From Balanoglossus misakiensis (lineage: Eukaryota > Animalia > Hemichordata): a DNA stretch of 64,000 nucleotides. Position numbers and translations under genes: made by a program. Of the stretch, positions 1-39,030 are shown piece by piece. A model generated the notes under the pieces. It searched no databases and was not told where the DNA came from. It worked only from the letters and a program-made list of their open reading frames with translations. The stretch lies in the NCBI GenBank assembly GCA_040954595.2, contig CM082587.2:11990053-12054052 (forward strand). The letters run 5' to 3'. Numbering within the stretch: the first letter of the stretch is position 1; the number at the start of each line of letters is the position of its first letter.

Positions 1-473
1 GCCACCAAGTAAAGTTCCACGCCGCCCACCACAGATGCCAGCATTCATTCATGCGAGTGAGTGTAATTGCAAATTTGCCTATTCTAGATCTGTAATGGAA
101 ATGGAGAAAGTACCTTATATTTTCTGTAAAATAGACATTTAATTGGCAAGCCGTCCTGCATCAATTATGAATTGTGTACATGCACTAAAGCGCCCTCACT
201 GCTGGGTGTGTTGTATGGTCTTTAACCCTGTTTCAAATTAGAGTACTTTCTGCAATTTCAAGACAGATCTTACGTGCCATTGGAGAGCTCCATTGACTGG
301 TCATTCATACTGTTTTCATTCATTCATTGCGGCATCAATATATTTTATCTATTCTAGCCAAAGAGCTTGGCACCTGTTGAAATGAACTCATCTGCTGTGG
401 GCCAGTTTATTGGTGGCAGTTGAGCTGAGGAGAGCACCTTCCTTCCCGGCACGCCACCAAGTAAAGTTCCACG
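1..473. repeat. Tail of 452-bp satellite array preceding cassette 1
   Basis: Same sequence as the monomers at 8620-21109; diverges from the satellite at 474 (ccacg|tgcattcc versus ccacg|ccgccc). Confidence 0.97.
90..266. mobile_element. 177-bp MITE-like module B (representative; 66 more full copies in the arrays)
   Basis: Left end agatCTGTaatggaaatggagaaagtac matches the reverse complement of the right end, agatCTGTcttgaaattgcagaaagtac, at 23/28. Flanked by AT on both sides. Absent from the short monomers. Confidence 0.8.
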
Positions 474-2263
474 TGCATTCCTGGCCCTGGTTTTATTTAT
501 GTTTACAGACAATATTGCATTTTTGTACAAGTATTTTAATCAACTATAAATTTTGAATGTGTCATTTACCTGAACCGGTCATGTTGACCAGAATGATACA
601 TTTCTGCCTTCACTCACCCTATAAATATGTGATTGAGACATAGGTCATTTGCATAAGCTAACATACCAGAAAGTAAGCATATCTGTTGTTTTCCCTGTGT
701 CACTGCCATCAAAGTAAAAATTAGACGTTGTGTAGAGCAAACTCCAATTTTTTGTTCTCAATAAACATGGATGAATTACATAGAATGTGTTTGTTGTTTA
801 CAGTCTTTAAATGACACATTAGATTATGCACTTTACAAAACGTTTCTGAGAAACAAGTGACTAACTAGTTTCTTTCCACTGTGGCCAACGTGGTTCACTG
901 TTTGTGTCAGAATCTCTCTGTTTTGCAAGGATTTTGAAATCATAGTGGTGACATGCATAGTGAAAATCAGCTACTTTCAAATGTCCGTCATGTTCATGCT
1001 GTAATTGAATTTTCAAAGCTGGGCTGGCGTGTTTTTTCTTATTTACATAAGTATCACACTTTATACATGTATCTTCATGGGGTTTTTTGAGTCCCGTATT
1101 TAGGTCCTCTCTCACAATTTTACGAAATATCGTATAACTGACAGTTGTTCTTCCCAGAAGAGATTGGTTGGTTATGAACTCTCGGTGTAACTGCGATATA
1201 CTGTGGTCCGGCGCCAGGTACGGTTTAAATCGAGGATTCCTGCAGTAGTGAGATTCTACAATTCTGTGCCTGCGTACGTGTTCAGTGATATCAGTCAGCA
1301 AATTTGGATTGAGTTTCCGACGATGCCCTTTGTGTCGGCCCCTTGCATCTGGCATCAGACCAGTAAAGTTCCATGTGCATTCCTGGCCCTGGTTTTATTT
1401 ATGTTTACAGACAATATTGCATTTTTGTACAAGTATTTTAATCAACTATAAATTTTGAATGTGTCATTTACCTGAACCGGTCATGTTGACCAGAATGATA
1501 CATTTCTGCCTTCACTCACCCTATAAATATGTGATTGAGACATAGGTCATTTGCATAAGCTAACATACCAGAAAGTAAGCATATCTGTTGTTTTCCCTGT
1601 GTCACTGCCATCAAAGTAAAAATTAGACGTTGTGTAGAGCAAACTCCAATTTTTTGTTCTCAATAAACATGGATGAATTACATAGAATGTGTTTGTTGTT
1701 TACAGTCTTTAAATGACACATTAGATTATGCACTTTACAAAACGTTTCTGAGAAACAAGTGACTAACTAGTTTCTTTCCACTGTGGCCAACGTGGTTCAC
1801 TGTTTGTGTCAGAATCTCTCTGTTTTGCAAGGATTTTGAAATCATAGTGGTGACATGCATAGTGAAAATCAGCTACTTTCAAATGTCCGTCATGTTCATG
1901 CTGTAATTGAATTTTCAAAGCTGGGCTGGCGTGTTTTTTCTTATTTACATAAGTATCACACTTTATACATGTATCTTCATGGGGTTTTCTGAGTCCCGTA
2001 TTTAGGTCCTCTCTCACAATTTTACGAAATATCGTATAACTGACAGTTGTTCTTCCCAGAAGAGATTGGTTGGTTATGAACTCTCGGTGTAACTGCGATA
2101 TACTGTGGTCCGGCGCCAGGTACGGTTTAAATCGAGGATTCCTGCAGTAGTGAGATTCTACAATTCTGTGCCTGCGTACGTGTTCAGTGATATCAGTCAG
2201 CAAATTTGGATTGAGTTTCCGACGATGCCCTTTGTGTCGGCCCCTTGCATCTGGCATCAGACC
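460..2263. repeat. 902-bp tandem duplication (3' half and downstream region of the transposase N-half gene)
   Basis: 460-1361 and 1362-2263 are nearly identical. Both start agtaaagttcca; ORF stops at 861 and 1763 are 902 apart; one K/R difference. Confidence 0.95.
861..1355 (-). pseudogene. 5'-truncated duplicate of the transposase N-half ORF (164 aa, open frame)
   Basis: Identical to the last 164 aa of 1763-2719 except GLKKP versus GLRKP; the breakpoint lies a few bp upstream of an internal ATG. Confidence 0.75.
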
Positions 2264-2719
2264 AGTTGAACAGTGCATCATTTTGCTTAGAACGGTTCTA
2301 GTCCGCCTCTCACTAATGCCAAATAATTTCAGGAATGCATTTTTGCAGACAGTAACCGTTTCACCGCCTTCATTCACCAGGTGATAACGAACCGATTTCT
2401 TGTGTGACTTCATCTGTATATCCATCAGTTTGTAGAGCATCAAGTTCTGTTCATTATACACGCGACCATCAAAATATTTTCTCGTGGTGCCTAAAACATG
2501 CGTACTCCCAAGCTTCCGCAGACAATTCCCTTGAACGCAGGCGCATTCCAAGGAAAGACTGTCAATATCTGGAAAAGGGCGATTTTTCCTTGGTTTTTGT
2601 CTCGGACACGTCTTTTTAGAATTCCTACGTGGCTTGTTGGCTCGAGCTGACAGTTCGGTTCTGCGTTGCTGCCACACAGGAATGGGTTCCCACGCATAAG
2701 CAACTCCCCGGCAGGCCAT
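1763..2719 (-). CDS. Sola-like transposase N-terminal half (CxC, VCK, ESHY, CxxC-H Zn/DNA-binding region), 318 aa
   Basis: Motifs CACVQGNC, VCKNAFLKLFGIS, DARGRH, ESHYCR..YL...SI and KPHEDTCIKC..H occur in the order seen N-terminal to the catalytic core of Sola1-type transposases. Start context accATGg. Confidence 0.8.
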   Translation of the reverse strand: MACRGVAYAWEPIPVWQQRRTELSARANKPRRNSKKTCPRQKPRKNRPFPDIDSLSLECACVQGNCLRKLGSTHVLGTTRKYFDGRVYNEQNLMLYKLMDIQMKSHKKSVRYHLVNEGGETVTVCKNAFLKLFGISERRTRTVLSKMMHCSTGLMPDARGRHKGHRRKLNPNLLTDITEHVRRHRIVESHYCRNPRFKPYLAPDHSISQLHREFITNQSLLGRTTVSYTIFRKIVREDLNTGLRKPHEDTCIKCDTYVNKKKHASPALKIQLQHEHDGHLKVADFHYACHHYDFKILAKQRDSDTNSEPRWPQWKETS

Positions 2720-2890
2720 GGTCACAGCTGAAGTATTTGTTCAAGTACTGACTGACTAAACGCGGCATGGAACAAACGAACGAACGAACGAACGACTTCA
2801 CGTTCGGAAAAAAAATCGTTGCGAGCTGTTGGGTGCCTCTATAGTTGTCGGCAACCGTTCTTTTTTATTGCTAAACAATGCTGTCAGAGC
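2720..2890. promoter_or_regulatory. Putative bidirectional promoter with (GAAC)n microsatellite
   Basis: 171 bp between two divergent Kozak-context ATGs; contains gaacaaacgaacgaacgaacgaacga and TTCGGAA. Confidence 0.55.
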
Positions 2891-3904
2891 ATGGAAGGTG
2901 TGGTGGAAAACGAACAGAGGTTTTGTACGACCAACGATTGGATGGTGCTACATATGGACTTCCACAAGTCATTGCCGGTTCCTAAACTCAGCTCTGAAGA
3001 CTTTTACTTTAAATCGAAATTGCAAATGAAGCTCCTTGGAATTTACAACGGGACAACGGAAAAGATGCATTGTTATGTATGGACAGAGCTCGATAGCAGA
3101 AAGTCTCCCGATGAAGTTATTACCTGTCTAAATCACTTTTTTTATAACTCGGGTGTGACCAGCAGACATGCAGTTATTTACAGCGACAACTGCCGTGCCG
3201 AATTCAAGTGTGGGAAGTTAATGTTTTACTATGACTATCTGTTACGAAAGGGCGTGTTTCGACGAATTGACTATAAAACTCTTGTGGCTGGACACACGTA
3301 CTCCACCTGTGACCGAGTTTTTGCGTCCATTGAAAGGCATGCAAGTCGTTTCCAGAGTATAGAGACACCTCACGATTGGACATCTGTGATTCGAGGATCT
3401 TCTCTGAATGGGAACATTGGAGTTACGGAGATGACTCACAGAGACTTTTTCAATTATTCTGATTTCCTGAAAAATGAGTACGTTGTGCGTTATGCAGATA
3501 CAAACAATGTAACTTTTTACTACCAAGCCATGCACTATTTTAATTTTGGAGAAGGAGAAAGGCTTGATACCGACGGCAACCTCAGAACATTTAGTCATGC
3601 AGATAAAGTTTGGGTGAGAACATCTCTAGATCCAAGCGAGACCCCGATTGTAGTCGACTTTAGAAAGAAGAAGCAGAACCGGCGTTTACAAGATTGTACG
3701 CTGAACAAACTTTATCAGGAACGTCGACCACTGGCGAGCAAAGTTTGGCGGGATCTTCAGAGTTTAGCCAAAAATTACCTGTCTCCGGAGGCAATAGAAT
3801 TTTATAGGAATCTACCGCTTCAGGAGAGTAGTGGCACCTCTGCAGACCCGTACGCCTTTCATGATGATGACGACGACGATGATGATGATATGGGCGGTGG
3901 TTGA
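2891..3904 (+). CDS. Sola-like DDE transposase catalytic half, 337 aa, acidic tail
   Basis: Motifs MDFHKSLPVP..FYFKSKL, CYVWTE..DEVITCL, IYSDNC, GHTYSTCDRVFASIE form an RNase H-like DDE/D pattern. Start agcATGg preferred over TTG at 2819. Ends in D9. Confidence 0.85.
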   Translation: MEGVVENEQRFCTTNDWMVLHMDFHKSLPVPKLSSEDFYFKSKLQMKLLGIYNGTTEKMHCYVWTELDSRKSPDEVITCLNHFFYNSGVTSRHAVIYSDNCRAEFKCGKLMFYYDYLLRKGVFRRIDYKTLVAGHTYSTCDRVFASIERHASRFQSIETPHDWTSVIRGSSLNGNIGVTEMTHRDFFNYSDFLKNEYVVRYADTNNVTFYYQAMHYFNFGEGERLDTDGNLRTFSHADKVWVRTSLDPSETPIVVDFRKKKQNRRLQDCTLNKLYQERRPLASKVWRDLQSLAKNYLSPEAIEFYRNLPLQESSGTSADPYAFHDDDDDDDDDMGGG

Positions 3905-4065
3905 ACAAACTGTCCTTTTCATGACGACAGTGATTTTGGATATTTGATGTGCGTGCACAGTTTATATGTAATATTTTCACACGAACGAGTTTTGACTGAA
4001 TTTGATTAAAGAATGTACTCGATAATTAACAAATGTGCTGAATCGTGGTTATTATGTTGTTAATT

Positions 4066-4090
4066 TTTGTTTGTTTGTTTGTTTGTTTGT
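4066..4090. repeat. (TTTG)n microsatellite
   Basis: tttgtttgtttgtttgtttgtttgt read directly. Confidence 0.9.
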
Positions 4091-4286
4091 AAACAATTTC
4101 CGTTCATTCAACTGGCTACAAAGTTGGATTTTTGTACTGGGAAGCGATAAACTCGCACATCAAAACCGGGGAGACTCGATCATTTTTCCCTGCAGGTAGC
4201 CTGAAAAGCACCCGGGCAGAGATTACGTCATATATGGTCCACTTTAATACGAAATTATGCAAATGTGACATTTCACGGAAACGGCG

Positions 4287-4295
4287 TATATAAAA
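4287..4295 (+). promoter_or_regulatory. TATA box of the SET gene
   Basis: TATATAAAA about 100 bp upstream of ATG 4388; a CRE-like TTACGTCA lies at ~4223. Confidence 0.6.
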
Positions 4296-4387
4296 GCGAC
4301 CCTGGGCTATTGTTCGGAATGCGTCATCGACGAGAGAGTGACTGATAATTCTTCTACCTCGAGTCAACCATTCTGTATATACTGAAC

Positions 4388-5714
4388 ATGGCTAGCTGGC
4401 GCAGGAAGAGACAAGGCAATGTGCGGTCTGTAATCAACGAACGGCACCGCTCAGTTCAGTGTCCCTTTCTTCAAAAGTGGATCGGTGAGCAATTGGTATT
4501 TTCAGGTCGTTCAGAGGATGAAGTCCAGTCCAGTACTGTATTTGAGAGCTACAAATGTTGGGTTGAAAACTATTCGTCGGCGGACAATCAAGTAATGATT
4601 ATGGTTACTAAAGCTCGATTTTTCAAGGTGAGAATGATCGCATTTTTCTTCCCCCCCCCCCTCCCTCCCCCAAGGGACTCGTTTTCTGTCTCTTTTAAAC
4701 CTGTAACTTAACGAAAAGGAAGTTTTTCACATATCTCTTTGTTGACACTATAGCAATTTGGAGCGCGGATGCTTCAAGAGAATAGCGTTACCAAATCAAA
4801 GTCGGCCGGGGTTAATATTTATAGAGGTGTTCGTCTGAAAGCTGGTTCGCGAAGAATCTCAACGGGGAAACCTGAGCACAGTGTACTTCAGACCAGGGCA
4901 AGGGCATTTCTTGATGACGCCAGCGTGACCGTTCCGATCGAGGTAAGAATGGTGTTTTGTTTGGACTAGGACAATAGAACGTTGCAATGAGTGTGTCAAT
5001 GGGTGTCCAAGTGCAAACGTGGTCGGCTTCTGTCCACAAATGCCATTAATTTTAGGCAGGATTTATAAAATTGTCAATGAAGAATACAAAAATGAAAAAC
5101 AATAGTTAATAGCAAACGGGTAGGATTGCAAGGGCTTGTAAAACGGTACACACTGTACCAGGAAGTTTGCAACACTAATGAAGAATGTATATGATATATT
5201 TAGGTGAGAACTGTTCGCGATCGCCGGGACGCAGGACGGTGCGCGTTTTCGACGAGGGATCTTCAAGCCTGGAACGTCGTCTGCGAATACCGGGGCACGG
5301 TTATTAGCGTTGAAGAAGCTAGTCGGCGTGATGAACTTTACAGGGCAGAGGGGAAACGACCACGCATGTTTCATCTCTACATTGGAAAGAGACACGTTGT
5401 GTGAGTGTATCACTTAGTCGAATATATGGTCATATATTGCAAAGCATCTGTCGAAATAGAAAACGTAATATTGTCTATATTTTCCTCATTAACGCAGCAT
5501 TGACGGATACGATGTCCCAGCCGGTGAAGAAAATTTAGCGGGCCTAATAAATCACAGTCAGCAGAACGCCAACTTGGTACCGGTTCGGATCGGAGAGCGC
5601 CTGGTTTTCTTTGCAACCAGGAATCTTTGTCAGGGAGTAGAGCTTTTGTATGATTACGGTGACGGGGGTGAAGAGGATTTCTTCAGTGGTTCTCAAACTT
5701 TTCCTGAAAATTAA
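4388..5714 (+). CDS. Winged-helix + SETD8/PR-Set7-like SET methyltransferase, 280 aa, 4 exons (4388-4627, 4754-4942, 5204-5400, 5498-5714)
   Basis: Three GT-AG introns (phases 0, 0, 2) join one open frame with GRCAF..CEYRG..EA.RR..LY, IDG, GLINHS and ELLYDYGD, and no Cys post-SET. The N-terminus (W..E..V....VFESY..W..F....YRGVRLK) resembles an RFX/D5-C winged helix. Confidence 0.85.
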
Positions 5715-5759
5715 GGCATTAACACATCAACGCTTCGGGATGTCGTAACGGCGGCAAGG

Positions 5760-5779
5760 CGGGGGGGGGGGGGGGGGGG
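5760..5779. repeat. Poly-G tract
   Basis: About 20 G; one base longer in copy 2. Confidence 0.85.
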
Positions 5780-6621
5780 CGTGAAAATGTTTGTATCAGG
5801 AACAAAATTCCCGTGCAAATCACCTTGATCCGGGTGGGTGGACTATTCGCGACAAATGTTGAAATCATACAAAGCATTTTACTTAATTAACCCATTTTTT
5901 TCATTTATTTGTTTACAGTTTACAACGTCATAGAGAAGTTGAACTAGAGACTGGATCAGCGTGGGTGACACCATAGTACACCAATGTTTTCTTCAGTTTG
6001 ATTCAATTGTAATTTAAAACTGAGATTGCCTAACGCTTTCCCAGATTTTTTTAACCACTGAGAAACTGTGGGTTTTTTTCTGGGTTTTGGTGCGAGGTGA
6101 TCTCAGTCAGTGGTGTTAATTTAATTAATCATTTTCTTTTCCTATTTACGTCGACTGAAATGTATTTTGATAGGTGATAGTCATACCATAAAAAAATCTT
6201 ACGGCGCGACTGCCAAAATGTACATTTATTTGTCCGTTCCAAGTTATTTTGTGTATGTGTGATGGGTGCCGGTGACTGTGCAGGGTTGATTTCCCTAGAG
6301 CGACTGTTATATTCGTTTTCCAACGATGATGAATTTACATGTTATTTGCTTGGCATTTTGACGCAGAGACACTTCTGAAAACACAAACCTATTAATTATG
6401 CCACGGGTGTAAATTGATCACATTAAAAGAGGCTTTAGACGTTTGCCGCGAGCTCCTGGTGGGCAGAATCTTGTCAGCCCAAATTTGACTATAAGTACAT
6501 AGCCAATGATGTGACGCTCTCCCACATCCTTCGCCGCGCCTTTTCGCTGATTTACAGCATCTTGCGTAAACACTGTCATTTGATCTTGCTTGGCAGAAGT
6601 CAACTTGCTCTATACTACATT

Positions 6622-6987
6622 ATGGCGGCCAAGCTCAACTGCATATCAGATAATGCCAAGGAGCGTTTGAGAGGCATCCTCGCCAGAAGGAGTCGCGTTT
6701 CCGGTGACTGTGTGCTCTGGACGGGTGCAGCTTGTCGAAACGGCTATGGCTCTATTACGTTCAGAGATGAGAACACTCTAACCGCCTATGTCCATCACAT
6801 TGCACTCCTAATTAACGGAGTGCAATTGGTGGGCAGGCGGTTAGAGTGTTCTCATCTTTGCAACGAAAAGCTATGCATCCGCCCAGAGCACATTGTCCAG
6901 GAAACGCGACTCCTAAACATTTCACGAAAGACGTGCTTTAAATCCCCAAAAGGGGAGTGTCACCACGATCCCAGGTGCCTAAGGTGA
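6622..6987 (+). CDS. His-Cys box / His-Me finger endonuclease (I-PpoI-like), 121 aa
   Basis: Motifs CVLWTG..GYG, HHIA, SHLCNEKLCIRPEH..E....N..RKTC and CHHDPRC. Start attATGg preferred over GTG at 6511. Confidence 0.88.
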   Translation: MAAKLNCISDNAKERLRGILARRSRVSGDCVLWTGAACRNGYGSITFRDENTLTAYVHHIALLINGVQLVGRRLECSHLCNEKLCIRPEHIVQETRLLNISRKTCFKSPKGECHHDPRCLR

Positions 6988-7400
6988 GTAATCCTCTTCT
7001 CATTTGATATGTATTGTGTGACCCTGCAGTTGAAACGCTTTCATCAATAATTTGCGGCGCGTGGGTAATCTCGGTGTTATTGACAATGCAGCCGGCCCAA
7101 ACATTTTTAAATTAACACTGTTTCTGACTGTATTAACGAAATGTCCAATTTGCAAGTAGCCTATAGACAACCCTTTTGAATGAGTTTTGTCTCGTTGAGA
7201 TTTTATACATAAGGAACAATCTAGATTTATTTTAGAAGACACTGTTCTTTTAAAACAGCTAGCATAATACAGCTAAATTTCGGAATTTCCGGACAATTTT
7301 CGGAATTCCTTTTAAATTTGAGAAATTTTTCATCAGATATAAGTGTTACTATTTATTGGACATGTTTTTATCATTGTTTACTTTTTAAGGTCATTCTCAT

Positions 7401-7425
7401 CCCCCCCCCCCCCCCCCAAAAAAAA
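7401..7425. repeat. Poly-C/poly-A tract
   Basis: Abutting C and A runs whose lengths vary among the copies. Confidence 0.85.
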
Positions 7426-7974
7426 GCCGCTTTAGGCTTCATGTTCAGTAAAAAATCTGGAAAGTTCAGCTGAATTTTACACTGATCACACATTTTTGGG
7501 AAGGTCTGGCGCAAAATAAAGGATGACAAATGTAAATCTAATGTCACATTTGTAAACCTCTAAGTATTGTACACTCATTCTATTAAGTATATGCAAATAG
7601 TACGGATAATTTTTTCGGAATGTGGAATTCCGAAATTAGTTCGGAACGTGTTAGCAGTGAAGAGATCACCACTGAGGGTTGGAAGGCCTTGCCAGAAATT
7701 AACGCGTAAAGTACGCCCTCACAGGCCATGTAAACAAGGTCAAATAAGGCCGTCTGGCAAACGAATGATTAATTCAACGCGCCATTTGAGCCGAGCTGAG
7801 TTGGTCTGAGTTGCGTATCACACAGACTTAGGCTGAATGTCAGTGGAGTAACCAGTCCGTTTTAGATTTACCAATGATGTGAATTTAATTTCTTCACCCA
7901 GAAAAACAGAACACAACTTGTCTGCAACATGATGCTGGAGGTGACACATGACAGAGAAGTGGATCCGCGTTGTC

Positions 7975-8302
7975 AACACAGATGCCAGCATTCAAAAGGG
8001 GAGTGCCACCTGCTAAAATCAACTCATCTGCTGTTGGCCCATTTTACCTGTGGCAACTGTTCAGAGGAGACAACGTTTATTCCGTGCAAGCCAACACGCA
8101 ATGTTGGGGTCTACCTGTCAACACAGATGCAAGCATTCATGTGAGTGAGTATCAGGACTGACCTTGTTTTGCTGAATAATTCATAATGCCTATTTTAGAA
8201 TTCTTAGAGGCATTTGGAGTTCATTGCCTGGTCAACCAAACTACACCCCTTAACAGCTGAAACAAAATGCGTATTGTGTTCATTCATTCATTGCTTCAAT
8301 AT
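7975..8302 (+). repeat. Diverged copy of satellite part A inside the cassette
   Basis: Collinear matches to A: cacagatgccagcattca, aactcatctgctgttggcc, gtgagtgagt, gcctattttagaattctta, ttcattcattcattgc. Confidence 0.85.
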
Positions 8303-8619
8303 ATATAGGCAACATGAGTATCAAGTAGCACTATTTGTTTACGATTGTATTCATGAAAACTTCCCACTAACAATTCCACAGTTAATATTGAACACATTTA
8401 TCCAACAAGGTCAAAAGAAAAAGGGAATCTTCTGGTTCCAAAATACGCCACAAATGTGGGTCAACATACAGTGAAATATTATGGTGCTCAAATATGCAAC
8501 ATATCAAATCTGTCTCATCAAAGTCATGCTTTAAAAAAGAATTGAAAAGGTATTATTTATCCATTTGACTGCTGTATTTTCAGAAGGAAAACAAACTGAA
8601 TTTGGTTTTTCATGTACAA

Positions 8620-11600
8620 ATATTTTCTGTAAAATAGACATTTAATTGGCAAGCCGTCCTGCATCAATTATTAATTGTGTACATGCACTAAAGCGCCCTC
8701 ACTGCTGGGTGTGTTGTATGGTCTTTAACCCTGTTTCAAATTAGAGTACTTTCTGCAATTTCAAGACAGATCTTACGTGCCATTGGAGAGCTCCATTGAC
8801 TGGTCATTCATACTGTTTTCATTCATTCATTGCGGCATCAATATATTTTATGTATTCTAGCCAAAGAGCTTGGCACCTGTTGAAATGAACTCATCTGCTG
8901 TGGGCCAGTTTATTGGTGGCAGTTGAGCTGAGGAGAGCACCTTCCTTCCCGGCACGCCACCAAGTAAAGTTCCACGCCGCCCACCACAGATGCCAGCATT
9001 CATTCATGCGAGTGAGTGTAATTGCAAATTTGCCTATTCTAGATCTGTAATGGAAATGGAGAAAGTACCTTATATTTTCTGTAAAATAGACATTTAATTG
9101 GCAAGCCGTCCTGCATCAATTATGAATTGTGTACATGCACTAAAGCGCCCTCACTGCTGGGTGTGTTGTATGGTCTTTAACCCTGTTTCAAATTAGAGTA
9201 CTTTCTGCAATTTCAAGACAGATCTTACGTGCCATTGGAGAGCTCCATTGACTGGTCATTCATACTGTTTTCATTCATTCATTGCGGCATCAATATATTT
9301 TATCTATTCTAGCCAAAGAGCTTGGCACCTGTTGAAATGAACTCATCTGCTGTGGGCCAGTTTATTGGTGGCAGTTGAGCTGAGGAGAGCACCTTCCTTC
9401 CCGGCACGCCACCAAGTAAAGTTCCACGCCGCCCACCACAGATGCCAGCATTCATTCATGCGAGTGAGTGTAATTGCAAATTTGCCTATTCTAGATCTGT
9501 AATGGAAATGGAGAAAGTACCTTATATTTTCTGTAAAATAGACATTTAATTGGCAAGCCGTCCTGCATCAATTATGAATTGTGTACATGCACTAAAGCGC
9601 CCTCACTGCTGGGTGTGTTGTATGGTCTTTAACCCTGTTTCAAATTAGAGTACTTTCTGCAATTTCAAGACAGATCTTACGTGCCATTGGAGAGCTCCAT
9701 TGACTGGTCATTCATACTGTTTTCATTCATTCATTGCGGCATCAATATATTTTATCTATTCTAGCCAAAGAGCTTGGCACCTGTTGAAATGAACTCATCT
9801 GCTGTGGGCCAGTTTATTGGTGGCAGTTGAGCTGAGGAGAGCACCTTCCTTCCCGGCACGCCACCAAGTAAAGTTCCACGCCGCCCACCACAGATGCCAG
9901 CATTCATTCATGCGAGTGAGTGTAATTGCAAATTTGCCTATTCTAGATCTGTAATGGAAATGGAGAAAGTACCTTATATTTTCTGTAAAATAGACATTTA
10001 ATTGGCAAGCCGTCCTGCATCAATTATGAATTGTGTACATGCACTAAAGCGCCCTCACTGCTGGGTGTGTTGTATGGTCTTTAACCCTGTTTCAAATTAG
10101 AGTACTTTCTGCAATTTCAAGACAGATCTTACGTGCCATTGGAGAGCTCCATTGACTGGTCATTCATACTGTTTTCATTCATTCATTGCGGCATCAATAT
10201 ATTTTATCTATTCTAGCCAAAGAGCTTGGCACCTGTTGAAATGAACTCATCTGCTGTGGGCCAGTTTATTGGTGGCAGTTGAGCTGAGAAGAGCACCTTC
10301 CTTCCCGGCACGCCACCAAGTAAAGTTCCACGCCGCCCACCACAGATGCCAGCATTCATTCATGCGAGTGAGTGTAATTGCAAATTTGCCTATTCTAGAA
10401 TCTTACGTGCCATTGGAGAGCTCCATTGACTGGTCATTCATACTGTTTTCATTCATTCATTGCGGCATCAATATATTTTATCTATTCTAGCCAAAGAGCT
10501 TGGCACCTGTTGAAATGAACTCATCTGCTGTGGGCCAGTTTATTGGTGGCAGTTGAGCTGAGGAGAGCACCTTCCTTCCCGGGACGCCACCAAGTAAAGT
10601 TCCACGCCGCCCACCACAGATGCCAGCATTCATTCATGCGAGTGAGTGTAATTGCAAATTTGCCTATTCTAGATTCTTACGTGCCATTGGAGAGCTCCAT
10701 TGACTGGTCATTCATACTGTTTTCATTCATTCATTGCGGCATCAATATATTTTATCTATTCTAGCCAAAGAGCTTGGCACCTGTTGAAATGAACTCATCT
10801 GCTGTGGGCCAGTTTATTGGTGGCAGTTGAGCTGAGGAGAGCACCTTCCTTCCCGGCACGCCACCAAGTAAAGTTCCACGCCGCCCACCACAGATGCCAG
10901 CATTCATTCATGCGAGTGAGTGTAATTGCAAATTTGCCTATTCTAGATCTGTAATGGAAATGGAGAAAGTACCTTATATTTTCTGTAAAATAGACATTTA
11001 ATTGGCAAGCCGTCCTGCATCAATTATGAATTGTGTACATGCACTAAAGCGCCCTCACTGCTGGGTGTGTTGTATGGTCTTTAACCCTGTTTCAAATTAG
11101 AGTACTTTCTGCAATTTCAAGACAGATCTTACGTGCCATTGGAGAGCTCCATTGACTGGTCATTCATACTGTTTTCATTCATTCATTGCGGCATCAATAT
11201 ATTTTATCTATTCTAGCCAAAGAGCTTGGCACCTGTTGAAATGAACTCATCTGCTGTGGGCCAGTTTATTGGTGGCAGTTGAGCTGAGGAGAGCACCTTC
11301 CTTCCCGGCACGCCACCAAGTAAAGTTCCACGCCGCCCACCACAGATGCCAGCATTCATTCATGCGAGTGAGTGTAATTGCAAATTTGCCTATTCTAGAT
11401 CTGTAATGGAAATGGAGAAAGTACCTTATATTTTCTGTAAAATAGACATTTAATTGGCAAGCCGTCCTGCATCAATTATGAATTGTGTACATGCACTAAA
11501 GCGCCCTCACTGCTGGGTGTGTTGTATGGTCTTTAACCCTGTTTCAAATTAGAGTACTTTCTGCAATTTCAAGACAGATCTTACGTGCCATTGGAGAGCT

Positions 11601-14600
11601 CCATTGACTGGTCATTCATACTGTTTTCATTCATTCATTGCGGCATCAATATATTTTATGTATTCTAGCCAAAGAGCTTGGCACCTGTTGAAATGAACTC
11701 ATCTGCTGTGGGCCAGTTTATTGGTGGCAGTTGAGCTGAGGAGAGCACCTTCCTTCCCGGCACGCCACCAAGTAAAGTTCCACGCCGCCCACCACAGATG
11801 CCAGCATTCATTCATGCGAGTGAGTGTAATTGCAAATTTGCCTATTCTAGATCTGTAATGGAAATGGAGAAAGTACCTTATATTTTCTGTAAAATAGACA
11901 TTTAATTGGCAAGCCGTCCTGCATCAATTATTAATTGTGTACATGCACTAAAGCGCCCTCACTGCTGGGTGTGTTGTATGGTCTTTAACCCTGTTTCAAA
12001 TTAGAGTACTTTCTGCAATTTCAAGACAGATCTTACGTGCCATTGGAGAGCTCCATTGACTGGTCATTCATACTGTTTTCATTCATTCATTGCGGCATCA
12101 ATATATTTTATCTATTCTAGCCAAAGAGCTTGGCACCTGTTGAAATGAACTCATCTGCTGTGGGCCAGTTTATTGGTGGCAGTTGAGTTGAGGAGAGCAC
12201 CTTCCTTCCCGGCACGCCACCAAGTAAAGTTCCACGCCGCCCACCACAGATGCCAGCATTCATTCATGCGAGTGAGTGTAATTGCAAATTTGCCTATTCT
12301 AGAATTCTTACGTGCCATTGGAGAGCTCCATTGACTGGTCATTCATACTGTTTTCATTCATTCATTGCGGCATCAATATATTTTATGTATTCTAGCCAAA
12401 GAGCTTGGCACCTGTTGAAATGAACTCATCTGCTGTGGGCCAGTTTATTGGTGGCAGTTGAGCTGAGGAGAGCACCTTCCTTCCCGGCACGCCACCAAGT
12501 AAAGTTCCACGCCGCCCACCACAGATGCCAGCATTCATTCATGCGAGTGAGTGTAATTGCAAATTTGCCTATTCTAGATCTGTAATGGAAATGGAGAAAG
12601 TACCTTATATTTTCTGTAAAATAGACATTTAATTGGCAAGCCGTCCTGCATCAATTATGAATTGTGTACATGCACTAAAGCGCCCTCACTGCTGGGTGTG
12701 TTGTATGGTCTTTAACCCTGTTTCAAATTAGAGTACTTTCTGCAATTTCAAGACAGATCTTACGTGCCATTGGAGAGCTCCATTGACTGGTCATTCATAC
12801 TGTTTTCATTCATTCATTGTGGCATCAATATATTTTATCTATTCTAGCCAAAGAGCTTGGCACCTGTTGAAATGAACTCATCTGCTGTGGGCCAGTTTAT
12901 TGGTGGCAGTTGAGCTGAGGAGAGCACCTTCCTTCCCGGCACGCCACCAAGTAAAGTTCCACGCCGCCCACCACAGATGCCAGCATTCATTCATGCGAGT
13001 GAGTGTAATTGCAAATTTGCCTATTCTAGATCTGTAATGGAAATGGAGAAAGTACCTTATATTTTCTGTAAAATAGACATTTAATTGGCAAGCCGTCCTG
13101 CATCAATTATTAATTGTGTACATGCACTAAAGCGCCCTCACTGCTGGGTGTGTTGTATGGTCTTTAACCCTGTTTCAAATTAGAGTACTTTCTGCAATTT
13201 CAAGACAGATCTTACGTGCCATTGGAGAGCTCCATTGACTGGTCATTCATACTGTTTTCATTCATTCATTGCGGCATCAATATATTTTATCTATTCTAGC
13301 CAAAGAGCTTGGCACCTGTTGAAATGAACTCATCTGCTGTGGGCCAGTTTATTGGTGGCAGTTGAGCTGAGAAGAGCACCTTCCTTCCCGGCACGCCACC
13401 AAGTAAAGTTCCACGCCGCCCACCACAGATGCCAGCATTCATTCATGCGAGTGAGTGTAATTGCAAATTTGCCTATTCTAGATCTGTAATGGAAATGGAG
13501 AAAGTACCTTATATTTTCTGTAAAATAGACATTTAATTGGCAAGCCGTCCTGCATCAATTATGAATTGTGTACATGCACTAAAGCGCCCTCACTGCTGGG
13601 TGTGTTGTATGGTCTTTAACCCTGTTTCAAATTAGAGTACTTTCTGCAATTTCAAGACAGATCTTACGTGCCATTGGAGAGCTCCATTGACTGGTCATTC
13701 ATACTGTTTTCATTCATTCATTGCGGCATCAATATATTTTATCTATTCTAGCCAAAGAGCTTGGCACCTGTTGAAATGAACTCATCTGCTGTGGGCCAGT
13801 TTATTGGTGGCAGTTGAGCTGAGGAGAGCACCTTCCTTCCCGGCACGCCACCAAGTAAAGTTCCACGCCGCCCACCACAGATGCCAGCATTCATTCATGC
13901 GAGTGAGTGTAATTGCAAATTTGCCTATTCTAGATCTGTAATGGAAATGGAGAAAGTACCTTATATTTTCTGTAAAATAGACATTTAATTGGCAAGCCGT
14001 CCTGCATCAATTATGAATTGTGTACATGCACTAAAGCGCCCTCACTGCTGGGTGTGTTGTATGGTCTTTAACCCTGTTTCAAATTAGAGTACTTTCTGCA
14101 ATTTCAAGACAGATCTTACGTGCCATTGGAGAGCTCCATTGACTGGTCATTCATACTGTTTTCATTCATTCATTGCGGCATCAATATATTTTATCTATTC
14201 TAGCCAAAGAGCTTGGCACCTGTTGAAATGAACTCATCTGCTGTGGGCCAGTTTATTGGTGGCAGTTGAGCTGAGGAGAGCACCTTCCTTCCCGGCACGC
14301 CACCAAGTAAAGTTCCACGCCGCCCACCACAGATGCCAGCATTCATTCATGCGAGTGAGTGTAATTGCAAATTTGCCTATTCTAGATCTGTAATGGAAAT
14401 GGAGAAAGTACCTTATATTTTCTGTAAAATAGACATTTAATTGGCAAGCCGTCCTGCATCAATTATGAATTGTGTACATGCACTAAAGCGCCCTCACTGC
14501 TGGGTGTGTTGTATGGTCTTTAACCCTGTTTCAAATTAGAGTACTTTCTGCAATTTCAAGACAGATCTTACGTGCCATTGGAGAGCTCCATTGACTGGTC

Positions 14601-17600
14601 ATTCATACTGTTTTCATTCATTCATTGCGGCATCAATATATTTTATGTATTCTAGCCAAAGAGCTTGGCACCTGTTGAAATGAACTCATCTGCTGTGGGC
14701 CAGTTTATTGGTGGCAGTTGAGCTGAGGAGAGCACCTTCCTTCCCGGCACGCCACCAAGTAAAGTTCCACGCCGCCCACCACAGATGCCAGCATTCATTC
14801 ATGCGAGTGAGTGTAATTGCAAATTTGCCTATTCTAGATCTGTAATGGAAATGGAGAAAGTACCTTATATTTTCTGTAAAATAGACATTTAATTGGCAAG
14901 CCGTCCTGCATCAATTATTAATTGTGTACATGCACTAAAGCGCCCTCACTGCTGGGTGTGTTGTATGGTCTTTAACCCTGTTTCAAATTAGAGTACTTTC
15001 TGCAATTTCAAGACAGATCTTACGTGCCATTGGAGAGCTCCATTGACTGGTCATTCATACTGTTTTCATTCATTCATTGCGGCATCAATATATTTTATCT
15101 ATTCTAGCCAAAGAGCTTGGCACCTGTTGAAATGAACTCATCTGCTGTGGGCCAGTTTATTGGTGGCAGTTGAGCTGAGGAGAGCACCTTCCTTCCCGGC
15201 ACGCCACCAAGTAAAGTTCCACGCCGCCCACCACAGATGCCAGCATTCATTCATGCGAGTGAGTGTAATTGCAAATTTGCCTATTCTAGAATTACGTGCC
15301 ATTGGAGAGCTCCATTGACTGGTCATTCATACTGTTTTCATTCATTCATTGCGGCATCAATATATTTTATCTATTCTAGCCAAAGAGCTTGGCACCTGTT
15401 GAAATGAACTCATCTGCTGTGGGCCAGTTTATTGGTGGCAGTTGAGCTGAGGAGAGCACCTTCCTTCCCGGCACGCCACCAAGTAAAGTTCCACGCCGCC
15501 CACCACAGATGCCAGCATTCATTCATGCGAGTGAGTGTAATTGCAAATTTGCCTATTCTAGATCTGTAATGGAAATGGAGAAAGTACCTTATATTTTCTG
15601 TAAAATAGACATTTAATTGGCAAGCCGTCCTGCATCAATTATGAATTGTGTACATGCACTAAAGCGCCCTCACTGCTGGGTGTGTTGTATGGTCTTTAAC
15701 CCTGTTTCAAATTAGAGTACTTTCTGCAATTTCAAGACAGATCTTACGTGCCATTGGAGAGCTCCATTGACTGGTCATTCATACTGTTTTCATTCATTCA
15801 TTGCGGCATCAATATATTTTATCTATTCTAGCCAAAGAGCTTGGCACCTGTTGAAATGAACTCATCTGCTGTGGGCCAGTTTATTGGTGGCAGTTGAGCT
15901 GAGGAGAGCACCTTCCTTCCCGGCACGCCACCAAGTAAAGTTCCACGCCGCCCACCACAGATGCCAGCATTCATTCATGCGAGTGAGTGTAATTGCAAAT
16001 TTGCCTATTCTAGAATCTTACGTGCCATTGGAGAGCTCCATTGACTGGTCATTCATACTGTTTTCATTCATTCATTGCGGCATCAATATATTTTATCTAT
16101 TCTAGCCAAAGAGCTTGGCACCTGTTGAAATGAACTCATCTGCTGTGGGCCAGTTTATTGGTGGCAGTTGAGCTGAGGAGAGCACCTTCCTTCCCGGCAC
16201 GCCACCAAGTAAAGTTCCACGCCGCCCACCACAGATGCCAGCATTCATTCATGCGAGTGAGTGTAATTGCAAATTTGCCTATTCTAGATCTGTAATGGAA
16301 ATGGAGAAAGTACCTTATATTTTCTGTAAAATAGACATTTAATTGGCAAGCCGTCCTGCATCAATTATTAATTGTGTACATGCACTAAAGCGCCCTCACT
16401 GCTGGGTGTGTTGTATGGTCTTTAACCCTGTTTCAAATTAGAGTACTTTCTGCAATTTCAAGACAGATCTTACGTGCCATTGGAGAGCTCCATTGACTGG
16501 TCATTCATACTGTTTTCATTCATTCATTGCGGCATCAATATATTTTATCTATTCTAGCCAAAGAGCTTGGCACCTGTTGAAATGAACTCATCTGCTGTGG
16601 GCCAGTTTATTGGTGGCAGTTGAGCTGAGAAGAGCACCTTCCTTCCCGGCACGCCACCAAGTAAAGTTCCACGCCGCCCACCACAGATGCCAGCATTCAT
16701 TCATGCGAGTGAGTGTAATTGCAAATTTGCCTATTCTAGATCTGTAATGGAAATGGAGAAAGTACCTTATATTTTCTGTAAAATAGACATTTAATTGGCA
16801 AGCCGTCCTGCATCAATTATGAATTGTGTACATGCACTAAAGCGCCCTCACTGCTGGGTGTGTTGTATGGTCTTTAACCCTGTTTCAAATTAGAGTACTT
16901 TCTGCAATTTCAAGACAGATCTTACGTGCCATTGGAGAGCTCCATTGACTGGTCATTCATACTGTTTTCATTCATTCATTGCGGCATCAATATATTTTAT
17001 CTATTCTAGCCAAAGAGCTTGGCACCTGTTGAAATGAACTCATCTGCTGTGGGCCAGTTTATTGGTGGCAGTTGAGCTGAGGAGAGCACCTTCCTTCCCG
17101 GCACGCCACCAAGTAAAGTTCCACGCCGCCCACCACAGATGCCAGCATTCATTCATGCGAGTGAGTGTAATTGCAAATTTGCCTATTCTAGATCTGTAAT
17201 GGAAATGGAGAAAGTACCTTATATTTTCTGTAAAATAGACATTTAATTGGCAAGCCGTCCTGCATCAATTATGAATTGTGTACATGCACTAAAGCGCCCT
17301 CACTGCTGGGTGTGTTGTATGGTCTTTAACCCTGTTTCAAATTAGAGTACTTTCTGCAATTTCAAGACAGATCTTACGTGCCATTGGAGAGCTCCATTGA
17401 CTGGTCATTCATACTGTTTTCATTCATTCATTGCGGCATCAATATATTTTATCTATTCTAGCCAAAGAGCTTGGCACCTGTTGAAATGAACTCATCTGCT
17501 GTGGGCCAGTTTATTGGTGGCAGTTGAGCTGAGGAGAGCACCTTCCTTCCCGGCACGCCACCAAGTAAAGTTCCACGCCGCCCACCACAGATGCCAGCAT

Positions 17601-20600
17601 TCATTCATGCGAGTGAGTGTAATTGCAAATTTGCCTATTCTAGATCTGTAATGGAAATGGAGAAAGTACCTTATATTTTCTGTAAAATAGACATTTAATT
17701 GGCAAGCCGTCCTGCATCAATTATGAATTGTGTACATGCACTAAAGCGCCCTCACTGCTGGGTGTGTTGTATGGTCTTTAACCCTGTTTCAAATTAGAGT
17801 ACTTTCTGCAATTTCAAGACAGATCTTACGTGCCATTGGAGAGCTCCATTGACTGGTCATTCATACTGTTTTCATTCATTCATTGCGGCATCAATATATT
17901 TTATCTATTCTAGCCAAAGAGCTTGGCACCTGTTGAAATGAACTCATCTGCTGTGGGCCAGTTTATTGGTGGCAGTTGAGCTGAGAAGAGCACCTTCCTT
18001 CCCGGCACGCCACCAAGTAAAGTTCCACGCCGCCCACCACAGATGCCAGCATTCATTCATGCGAGTGAGTGTAATTGCAAATTTGCCTATTCTAGAATCT
18101 TACGTGCCATTGGAGAGCTCCATTGACTGGTCATTCATACTGTTTTCATTCATTCATTGCGGCATCAATATATTTTATCTATTCTAGCCAAAGAGCTTGG
18201 CACCTGTTGAAATGAACTCATCTGCTGTGGGCCAGTTTATTGGTGGCAGTTGAGCTGAGGAGAGCACCTTCCTTCCCGGGACGCCACCAAGTAAAGTTCC
18301 ACGCCGCCCACCACAGATGCCAGCATTCATTCATGCGAGTGAGTGTAATTGCAAATTTGCCTATTCTAGATTCTTACGTGCCATTGGAGAGCTCCATTGA
18401 CTGGTCATTCATACTGTTTTCATTCATTCATTGCGGCATCAATATATTTTATCTATTCTAGCCAAAGAGCTTGGCACCTGTTGAAATGAACTCATCTGCT
18501 GTGGGCCAGTTTATTGGTGGCAGTTGAGCTGAGGAGAGCACCTTCCTTCCCGGCACGCCACCAAGTAAAGTTCCACGCCGCCCACCACAGATGCCAGCAT
18601 TCATTCATGCGAGTGAGTGTAATTGCAAATTTGCCTATTCTAGATCTGTAATGGAAATGGAGAAAGTACCTTATATTTTCTGTAAAATAGACATTTAATT
18701 GGCAAGCCGTCCTGCATCAATTATTAATTGTGTACATGCACTAAAGCGCCCTCACTGCTGGGTGTGTTGTATGGTCTTTAACCCTGTTTCAAATTAGAGT
18801 ACTTTCTGCAATTTCAAGACAGATCTTACGTGCCATTGGAGAGCTCCATTGACTGGTCATTCATACTGTTTTCATTCATTCATTGCGGCATCAATATATT
18901 TTATCTATTCTAGCCAAAGAGCTTGGCACCTGTTGAAATGAACTCATCTGCTGTGGGCCAGTTTATTGGTGGCAGTTGAGCTGAGGAGAGCACCTTCCTT
19001 CCCGGCACGCCACCAAGTAAAGTTCCACGCCGCCCACCACAGATGCCAGCATTCATTCATGCGAGTGAGTGTAATTGCAAATTTGCCTATTCTAGATCTG
19101 TAATGGAAATGGAGAAAGTACCTTATATTTTCTGTAAAATAGACATTTAATTGGCAAGCCGTCCTGCATCAATTATGAATTGTGTACATGCACTAAAGCG
19201 CCCTCACTGCTGGGTGTGTTGTATGGTCTTTAACCCTGTTTCAAATTAGAGTACTTTCTGCAATTTCAAGACAGATCTTACGTGCCATTGGAGAGCTCCA
19301 TTGACTGGTCATTCATACTGTTTTCATTCATTCATTGCGGCATCAATATATTTTATGTATTCTAGCCAAAGAGCTTGGCACCTGTTGAAATGAACTCATC
19401 TGCTGTGGGCCAGTTTATTGGTGGCAGTTGAGCTGAGGAGAGCACCTTCCTTCCCGGCACGCCACCAAGTAAAGTTCCACGCCGCCCACCACAGATGCCA
19501 GCATTCATTCATGCGAGTGAGTGTAATTGCAAATTTGCCTATTCTAGATCTGTAATGGAAATGGAGAAAGTACCTTATATTTTCTGTAAAATAGACATTT
19601 AATTGGCAAGCCGTCCTGCATCAATTATTAATTGTGTACATGCACTAAAGCGCCCTCACTGCTGGGTGTGTTGTATGGTCTTTAACCCTGTTTCAAATTA
19701 GAGTACTTTCTGCAATTTCAAGACAGATCTTACGTGCCATTGGAGAGCTCCATTGACTGGTCATTCATACTGTTTTCATTCATTCATTGCGGCATCAATA
19801 TATTTTATCTATTCTAGCCAAAGAGCTTGGCACCTGTTGAAATGAACTCATCTGCTGTGGGCCAGTTTATTGGTGGCAGTTGAGCTGAGGAGAGCACCTT
19901 CCTTCCCGGCACGCCACCAAGTAAAGTTCCACGCCGCCCACCACAGATGCCAGCATTCATTCATGCGAGTGAGTGTAATTGCAAATTTGCCTATTCTAGA
20001 ATTACGTGCCATTGGAGAGCTCCATTGACTGGTCATTCATACTGTTTTCATTCATTCATTGCGGCATCAATATATTTTATCTATTCTAGCCAAAGAGCTT
20101 GGCACCTGTTGAAATGAACTCATCTGCTGTGGGCCAGTTTATTGGTGGCAGTTGAGCTGAGGAGAGCACCTTCCTTCCCGGCACGCCACCAAGTAAAGTT
20201 CCACGCCGCCCACCACAGATGCCAGCATTCATTCATGCGAGTGAGTGTAATTGCAAATTTGCCTATTCTAGATCTGTAATGGAAATGGAGAAAGTACCTT
20301 ATATTTTCTGTAAAATAGACATTTAATTGGCAAGCCGTCCTGCATCAATTATGAATTGTGTACATGCACTAAAGCGCCCTCACTGCTGGGTGTGTTGTAT
20401 GGTCTTTAACCCTGTTTCAAATTAGAGTACTTTCTGCAATTTCAAGACAGATCTTACGTGCCATTGGAGAGCTCCATTGACTGGTCATTCATACTGTTTT
20501 CATTCATTCATTGCGGCATCAATATATTTTATCTATTCTAGCCAAAGAGCTTGGCACCTGTTGAAATGAACTCATCTGCTGTGGGCCAGTTTATTGGTGG

Positions 20601-21109
20601 CAGTTGAGCTGAGGAGAGCACCTTCCTTCCCGGCACGCCACCAAGTAAAGTTCCACGCCGCCCACCACAGATGCCAGCATTCATTCATGCGAGTGAGTGT
20701 AATTGCAAATTTGCCTATTCTAGATCTGTAATGGAAATGGAGAAAGTACCTTATATTTTCTGTAAAATAGACATTTAATTGGCAAGCCGTCCTGCATCAA
20801 TTATGAATTGTGTACATGCACTAAAGCGCCCTCACTGCTGGGTGTGTTGTATGGTCTTTAACCCTGTTTCAAATTAGAGTACTTTCTGCAATTTCAAGAC
20901 AGATCTTACGTGCCATTGGAGAGCTCCATTGACTGGTCATTCATACTGTTTTCATTCATTCATTGCGGCATCAATATATTTTATCTATTCTAGCCAAAGA
21001 GCTTGGCACCTGTTGAAATGAACTCATCTGCTGTGGGCCAGTTTATTGGTGGCAGTTGAGCTGAGGAGAGCACCTTCCTTCCCGGCACGCCACCAAGTAA
21101 AGTTCCACG
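8620..21109. repeat. Satellite array 1: 22x452 + 5x274 + 1x275 + 2x272 + 357 bp partial
   Basis: Unit lengths sum exactly to 12490 bp. Confidence 0.95.
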
Positions 21110-38200: not shown

Positions 38201-39030
38201 TGGAAATGGAGAAAGTACCTTATATTTTCTGTAAAATAGACATTTAATTGGCAAGCCGTCCTGCATCAATTATGAATTGTGTACATGCACTAAAGCGCCC
38301 TCACTGCTGGGTGTGTTGTATGGTCTTTAACCCTGTTTCAAATTAGAGTACTTTCTGCAATTTCAAGACAGATCTTACGTGCCATTGGAGAGCTCCATTG
38401 ACTGGTCATTCATACTGTTTTCATTCATTCATTGCGGCATCAATATATTTTATCTATTCTAGCCAAAGAGCTTGGCACCTGTTGAAATGAACTCATCTGC
38501 TGTGGGCCAGTTTATTGGTGGCAGTTGAGCTGAGGAGAGCACCTTCCTTCCCGGCACGCCACCAAGTAAAGTTCCACGCCGCCCACCACAGATGCCAGCA
38601 TTCATTCATGCGAGTGAGTGTAATTGCAAATTTGCCTATTCTAGATCTGTAATGGAAATGGAGAAAGTACCTTATATTTTCTGTAAAATAGACATTTAAT
38701 TGGCAAGCCGTCCTGCATCAATTATGAATTGTGTACATGCACTAAAGCGCCCTCACTGCTGGGTGTGTTGTATGGTCTTTAACCCTGTTTCAAATTAGAG
38801 TACTTTCTGCAATTTCAAGACAGATCTTACGTGCCATTGGAGAGCTCCATTGACTGGTCATTCATACTGTTTTCATTCATTCATTGCGGCATCAATATAT
38901 TTTATCTATTCTAGCCAAAGAGCTTGGCACCTGTTGAAATGAACTCATCTGCTGTGGGCCAGTTTATTGGTGGCAGTTGAGCTGAGGAGAGCACCTTCCT
39001 TCCCGGCACGCCACCAAGTAAAGTTCCACG
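29256..39030. repeat. Satellite array 2: 16x452 + 5x274 + 3x272 + 357 bp partial
   Basis: Unit lengths sum exactly to 9775 bp. Confidence 0.95.

Follow-up and report, generated by a model that had tools for sequence, protein, structure and literature searches.

Empty junctions in a satellite array of Balanoglossus misakiensis as probable flank-hairpin scars of an AT-flanked miniature transposon

In a 64,000-nt stretch of the genome of the hemichordate Balanoglossus misakiensis (contig CM082587.2 of assembly GCA_040954595.2, positions 11,990,053 to 12,054,052; hereafter, the window), a satellite array preserves one site in two states next to each other, empty and filled, the filled allele being occupied by B, a miniature inverted-repeat transposon (MITE). 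We propose that the four types of empty junction are scars left when a transposase excised B on four or more separate occasions via hairpins on the flanking DNA, one base outside B, a reading to which we assign a probability of roughly 0.6. While hairpin footprints themselves are already known, the coexistence of both alleles in the array means that, for a MITE that targets AT and belongs to no recognised class, the offset of cleavage can be read from sequence alone.

Filled and empty junctions in a young tandem repeat

The window is a macro-repeat built of 8.2-kb gene blocks and, between them, arrays whose 452-bp monomer is composed of a segment A and the element B. The tandem repeat is young, and the gene-block copies at 460, 21096 and 39017 differ solely in G/C runs.

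460..8619, unstranded, gene block of 8.2 kb between arrays, with further copies at 21096 and 39017 and a new start at 63457
8620..21109, + strand, satellite array 1 of A(+B) monomers, starting within B and stopping within A
29256..39030, + strand, satellite array 2
47179..63470, + strand, satellite array 3
9045..9221, unstranded, B element, representative of 67 full copies, 177 bp, non-coding, CTGT…ACAG with AT on both sides

Anchor-based parsing across the whole window located 95 junctions, 67 of them filled (452-bp step, with the site reading GAT[B]ATC) and 28 empty. The empty junctions fall into four types, and their copy numbers (9, 7, 2 and 10), lengths and positions agree with those that an earlier note on this DNA had reported.

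10398..10402, + strand, empty junction GAATC (TAGAATCTT), 274-bp monomer, 9 copies in two haplotype contexts
10672..10676, + strand, empty junction GATTC (TAGATTCTT), 274 bp, 7 copies, all after A179C>G, one origin
12302..12307, + strand, empty junction GAATTC (TAGAATTCTT), 275 bp, 2 copies (12302 and 54391), one origin, diagnostic
15289..15295, + strand, empty junction GAATTAC (TAGAATT/GAATTAC), 272 bp, 10 copies, one origin, diagnostic

The same note had stated that simple deletion between the AGATCT direct repeats is never seen, and, indeed, the resulting 273-bp form (TAGATCTT) occurs at 0 of the 95 junctions, as does the blunt join GATATC. Each of the 94 complete A segments measures 265 bp, and each of the 67 segments at filled junctions 187 bp; outside the junction site, these 94 A and 67 B segments contain no indels and 8 distinct single-nucleotide polymorphisms (SNPs) in total. 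For a 275-bp monomer, the chance that at least three indel alleles fall within the same 10 bp is P ~0.004, and the pattern is therefore not explained by ordinary point indels.

The four junction types are not assembly artefacts. Joints matching all of them are present in the contigs of sequencing run X2 (one with intervening letters not known), and the GAATC joint also occurs in the contigs of X1 and in X3 and X4 of a second study. The contig matches listed include no 273-bp joint, bearing in mind that contigs prove presence, not absence.

Run X2 additionally contains a fifth, longer B-less joint (9037 to 9225, with intervening letters not known). Both X1 and X2 have an allele of A with 3 bp deleted at 9284, which does not occur in the window. 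Joints with a duplicated GATC, seen only in X2, are probable restriction-ligation library artefacts and were left out of the count.

The B element and its boundary

B is a MITE, that is, a mobile element bounded by terminal inverted repeats (TIRs). Its inverted repeat comprises 28 nt with 82% identity when the flanks are included (9041-9068 and 9198-9225), the TIRs being imperfect, and the B strand folds more stably than 200 of 200 shuffled sequences (z -3.0). The arrays contain no open reading frame (ORF) of 100 amino acids (aa). As expected of a MITE, the same ends recur in other flanks, in few contigs; the dispersed copies (26 of 728 pieces listed) carry 5-11 mismatches over 81-124 nt, plus gaps.

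Diverged B ends in contigs of the same organism run into (AT)n, with at least two left ends in X1, at least three in X2, and at least one right end, which assigns the terminal C and G to B itself. The simplest boundary is CTGT…ACAG with AT flanks, and it may extend by one or two bases per side. AT stands on both sides of all B copies seen, and GATC as an empty site is found at 0 of the 95 junctions. The left end of B has no exact match in the viral_contigs or genome_contigs collections. A Ginger-like delimitation (TGT…ACA with GATC as the target-site duplication, TSD) was rejected, as it reaches at most two of the four junctions and is at odds with those copies that have (AT)n on their flanks.

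A single excision model yields all four junctions

We compared 16 excision models, combining four boundaries with four cleavage modes and allowing for 0-5 trimmed and 1-4 palindromic bases. All four junctions are obtained from one model only, in which the element is CTGT…ACAG and the flank hairpin is nicked one base outside it, as in the Ac/Hermes type; each of the remaining 15 models reaches 0-2 of the four. Blunt trimming produces at most two junctions, and the same holds for a zero-offset (RAG-type) hairpin at any of the four boundaries. Hence, of the two kinds of hairpin footprint invoked by the earlier note, the Ac/Hermes type accounts for 4/4 junctions and is the sole model of the 16 to do so, but the zero-offset RAG/Transib type accounts for just 2/4.

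GAATTC and GAATTAC each require an A right after TAGA, which is the complement of the lost T. Among random trim-plus-insertion junctions, 5.1% are hairpin-reachable, which for the two diagnostic junctions gives a probability of ~0.003, or ~0.04 when allowing for the 16 models. Ds excisions in Arabidopsis are reported to have complemented one flank base with a net one-base loss in 14 of 17 cases, and these footprints were attributed to cleavage at the flanking 5′ nucleotide (PMC1978519, Table 1).

In the proposed sequence of events, B would have inserted into an A monomer at an AT dinucleotide, and the filled monomer would then have been amplified. The transposase would nick TAGA^T on each side, leaving hairpins whose tips bear the complement of the lost base. 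Hairpin opening by the host and end joining would convert GAA and TTC into GAATTC, opened hairpins would also give the central-mismatch pair GAATC/GATTC, and GAATTAC would arise from GAA(T) joined through T microhomology. Unequal exchange would then have multiplied each scar to 2-10 copies.

Number of events and origin of the empty units

The flanks of the empty junctions carry distinct alleles. GATTC is preceded by A179G in all 7 copies, GAATTC has A154C>T upstream in both copies and A78C>G downstream, GAATTAC is preceded by a B85T unit in 9 of 10 copies, and GAATC occurs in two flank contexts with 6 and 3 copies. The 28 empty copies go back to about 4-5 events, each later multiplied by array duplication. 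Since no empty junction type is a singleton, they point to past excision rather than ongoing activity; in this sense, the earlier claim that the array records several independent excisions is partly supported.

The A flanks of the 28 empty and 66 filled units show zero fixed differences (mean 0.86 per 265 bp), and the A78C>G allele, which lies next to GAATTC, has B before it in 9 of 11 copies. Judging from these shared flank SNPs, the empty units likely derive from filled ones. Moreover, the dispersed B copies listed are far more diverged than the unit flanks, which favours loss of B following an older insertion over the survival of never-filled units.

Evidence against flank hairpins and alternative explanations

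Several observations weigh against this reading. The earlier note had treated all four junctions as hairpin footprints, which remains tenable for the diagnostic GAATTC and GAATTAC, but GAATC and GATTC are equally reachable by 1-nt trimming and are not diagnostic, so that the case for a hairpin rests on the former two. Known flank-hairpin families have TSDs longer than the AT repeat flanking B, and no enzyme of any such family is encoded within the window. The GATC pre-insertion site, which an AT duplication requires, is present in none of the sequences seen. An insertion domain is carried by the known flank-hairpin families, as is a conserved Trp (PMC5499845, PMC7780238). Furthermore, concerted evolution could have erased the flank divergence of never-filled units. 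Finally, each gene block contains a diverged relative of the A monomer, which is listed here together with a nearby endonuclease ORF.

7983..8304, + strand, diverged A-monomer paralog, in each block, 71% identity by BLAST and 79% over 253 aligned columns
6622..6987, + strand, His-Me finger endonuclease ORF, 121 aa, open, PF05551 match with E 7e-13

The paralog shows TAGAATTCTT at 8196-8205, which corresponds by homology to the place where B is inserted; it aligns best to the GAATTC junction (score 63 vs 50-56), and GAATC, GATTC and GAATTAC equal 1- or 3-bp deletions of TAGAATTCTT.

GAATTC might, accordingly, be the ancestral never-filled site, with the other empty junctions produced from it by break-repair deletions, an explanation that we consider unlikely although both the presence of TAGAATTCTT in the paralog and the derivation of the three other junctions by simple deletion speak for it. 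So do the match of both AATT and ATAT to the AWWT preference of Sola1 (PMC3845634) and the rarity of GAATTC, the least frequent class, as would be expected of a cleavable allele. The His-Me ORF, which is open in all three blocks, may encode a site-specific cutter; it has the S-H, H and N active-site motif when compared with the I-PpoI residues given in PMC9587614, but its role in cutting GAATTC is that of a candidate only. Against this explanation, B must have removed two target bases on entry if GAATTC is ancestral. To our knowledge, there is no precedent for a DDE insertion that deletes target bases. In addition, GAATTC units lack older flank alleles, with A154T being derived relative to the paralog, and they adjoin A78G, which is elsewhere linked to filled units. 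If, on the other hand, GATC is ancestral, the GAATTC of the paralog is either a coincidence or an older scar. The earlier note had named descent of all short units from one never-filled ancestor as the outcome that would speak against excision; the paralog, which it missed, partly supplies such an ancestor by carrying GAATTC, but the empty units look derived from filled ones.

A 24-nt direct repeat within the A paralog (7971-7994 and 8116-8139, spaced by 145 bp) suggests an older, shorter period. The His-Me ORF contains a 26-nt inverted repeat (96%; 6762-6787 and 6835-6860).

The two non-diagnostic junctions also invite an explanation without hairpins, in which a double cut of the mariner/integrase type leaves one-base T overhangs that give rise to GAATC and GATTC, while GAATTC and GAATTAC emerge later from GAATC by slippage. 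GAATC and GATTC do resemble a central-mismatch pair, Sleeping Beauty footprints come from non-complementary overhangs (PMC7351741), and the best structural alignments of the modelled catalytic domain of the neighbouring transposase are to integrases and Mos1 (Z 8.2-9.7). Nevertheless, we regard this as improbable: it directly explains 2/4 junctions, and two more spontaneous indels at one site are unlikely when the 94 A and 67 B segments have none anywhere else. Moreover, GAATTC lies in a flank haplotype unlike both GAATC contexts.

Equally to be weighed is loss of B without any transposase, whereby the inverted repeats form an extruded hairpin or cruciform and B is deleted imprecisely by host structure-specific nucleases or by replication slippage. 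The folding of the B strand, which exceeds all 200 shuffles (z -3.0), and the fact that no cognate transposase for B has been found so far are consistent with such a process. Slippage across the stem, however, should prefer the 6-bp direct repeat AGATCT and yield the 273-bp form, seen in 0 of 28 empty junctions; the stem is imperfect (-24 kcal/mol), and the added A is not predicted, all of which leaves this explanation with little credibility in our view.

A split DUF7869 transposase next to the array

Besides the His-Me ORF, the gene block encodes a transposase divided into two genes and a SET-domain gene.

1763..2719, - strand, N-terminal half of a DUF7869-type transposase as a gene of its own, 318 aa, open
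2891..3904, + strand, stand-alone catalytic half, DUF7869, 337 aa, open, with D23, D99 and D141
4388..5714, + strand, predicted SET-domain gene, four exons, 280 aa, open, GT-AG introns

The N half matches the N-terminal parts of fused relatives of 500-800 aa (best E 6e-24 within a set of 151 proteins), and the catalytic half matches DUF7869 with E 1e-14. They are arranged head to head on opposite strands with their ATGs 171 bp apart, and both are open and identical in all three blocks. A sequence search of the PDB gave no match, nor did word-index searches with the N half and the His-Me protein. The predicted structure of the catalytic half (pLDDT 87.6) features a compact RNase H core with no insertion domain and with D99 and D141 42 residues apart. 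In a fold search, integrases and Mos1 came out as its nearest structures (Z 8.2-9.7, rmsd ~3 Å over 125-146 residues), and Hermes ranked low (Z 6.8), which alone excludes nothing.

In a FastTree phylogeny restricted to rows with coverage of the catalytic core (128 of 152), the catalytic half of the window falls into a 13-row clade (SH-like 96), all 13 members of which begin at the catalytic domain, and the majority of its distant relatives have a longer or fused protein (97 of 128 rows). Among named relatives, a 306-aa Saccoglossus protein comes nearest (47%). Truncated gene calls do occur on eukaryotic contigs, but at two unrelated loci, L001 (1726-4523) and L002 (838-10110), the N half is a gene of its own, on the opposite strand and convergent; the catalytic ORF of L001 contains a stop, and the N half of L002 is frameshifted. 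In L002 and L003, the SET gene adjoins the catalytic half, as it does in the window, and the gene order varies. At least four loci were recovered with a sister-clade alignment in 16 of 64 parts scanned; scans with the closest alignment found none. The split is a lineage trait, and the two-gene, opposite-strand DUF7869 lineage (window, L001 and L002) is a conserved one, with a SET gene nearby in the window, L002 and L003. The literature searched, which did not extend to Repbase Reports and subscription journals, yielded no description of a split DUF7869 plus SET cassette, and we found in it no relevant description of MITE excision footprints in satellite arrays.

An inverted repeat of 40 nt (85%) at 5667-6179 of L001 encloses ~510 bp with an ORF remnant, and is probably an unrelated small element.

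The earlier note suggested an excision assay with both transposase halves, but this two-part transposase can hardly be assumed to have excised B: its modelled catalytic half lacks an insertion domain, and no B-like end was found on the block, the best hit in a scan of the gene block for B-like TIRs (17/24) being equal to that at unrelated loci. Of the gene-block borders, one lies inside A and one inside B, with no complete B copies flanking the block. The split transposase is linked to B indirectly, by adjacency and because ATAT and AATT both conform to AWWT, the preference of Sola1 (PMC3845634). Its model has no insertion domain and is not hAT/Transib-like; a hAT transposase has a helical insertion domain, C/DxxH and Trp. 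The insertion domain is present in hAT, Transib and RAG1 (PMC7780238); flank-hairpin families share the Trp, and similar mechanisms have been noted for some retroviral integrases (PMC5499845). That this two-gene DUF7869 (Sola1-like) transposase, travelling with a SET gene, is the enzyme of B and forms hairpins on the flanks without an insertion domain is a doubtful proposition. If true, it would represent a naturally split flank-hairpin transposase that manages without the insertion domain known from hAT, RAG/Transib and MULE enzymes, and would provide the first mechanism for its superfamily. AWWT would then become AT[B]AT upon insertion and AATT upon excision, explaining the paralog as well. 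With three open, identical copies of the split transposase and SET cassette beside the candidate substrate B, the cleavage chemistry of DUF7869/Sola-type enzymes becomes directly testable.

Other features of the gene block

The right border of the gene block carries a remnant of a further element.

8305..8545, + strand, frameshifted fragment resembling in translation the C-terminal end of an L2/CR1 LINE ORF2, just 5′ of the truncated B at 8620

We take this fragment to be of the L2/CR1 family by resemblance; it has no Pfam match. At this border (8305-8620), the LINE-like ORF2 tail is joined to a left-truncated B. At the other end of the block, the N-half gene has its 3′ part duplicated in tandem (460-1361 and 1362-2263; 902 bp, 2 differences), and this duplication meets the array at a short stretch of microhomology to the A monomer (TAAAGTTCCA). 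A 23-nt inverted repeat (87%; 7287-7309 and 7624-7646, with 314 bp between) possibly marks another MITE. An Rfam search of window positions 1-11000 returned no match.

Comparison with known systems

Like hAT elements (Ac/Ds, Hermes), the B junctions display a complemented flank base, mostly a one-base net loss and microhomology joins (PMC1978519). The hairpin nicked one base into the flank, characteristic of hAT footprints, fits all four junctions, two of them diagnostically. B differs from hAT in its 2-bp AT flank repeat and CTGT ends, and the window contains no hAT transposase. The TSD of hAT elements is 8 bp, whereas the longest direct repeat flanking B is 6 bp, including bases inside B in the dispersed copies. 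In RAG/Transib, the hairpin is sealed exactly at the element border, and such a zero-offset hairpin yields only 2/4 junctions. What RAG/Transib and MULE have in common with our reading of B is a hairpin on the flanking DNA (PMC5499845).

ISL2EU (PHIS) elements have an AT dinucleotide TSD, comparable to the AT repeat on the flanks of B, but their ends usually begin with GG and their target is A|AT|T (PMC4482050), whereas B starts with CT and resides in G|AT|C or (AT)n. The neighbouring transposase resembles Sola1 in its DDD triad and in the homology of both halves to DUF7869 proteins of 500-800 aa, and differs from it in comprising two opposite-strand genes plus a SET gene, the split being found also in L001 and L002. 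Its Sola1 label is presumptive, resting on motifs. Sola1 transposases are encoded by a single ORF of about 600-750 aa. The AWWT preference of Sola1 matches the (AT)n sites of B, but the Sola1 element described in PMC3845634 has one 630-aa ORF and a TSD of 4 bp. No such TSD is present at the array site: ATAT of the dispersed B copies matches AWWT, and AGAT/ATCT of the array does not.

KolobokP, like the window, combines a His-Me gene with tandem multimers and with empty junctions interpreted as excision of a TIR-bounded repeat (PMC9587614). The window differs in its DUF7869 enzyme, in having no TTAA and in having no LTDR-INT-LTDR layout, and KolobokP footprints are one-sided 1-5 bp deletions, unlike those of B (PMC9587614). 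The available parts of bioRxiv 2021.09.26.461848, PMC11071193, PMC10045372, PMC5718144, PMC5751038 and PMC7351741 held nothing decisive for the comparison. The one-base offset together with the 2-bp AT flank repeat is a combination that matches none of the families compared.

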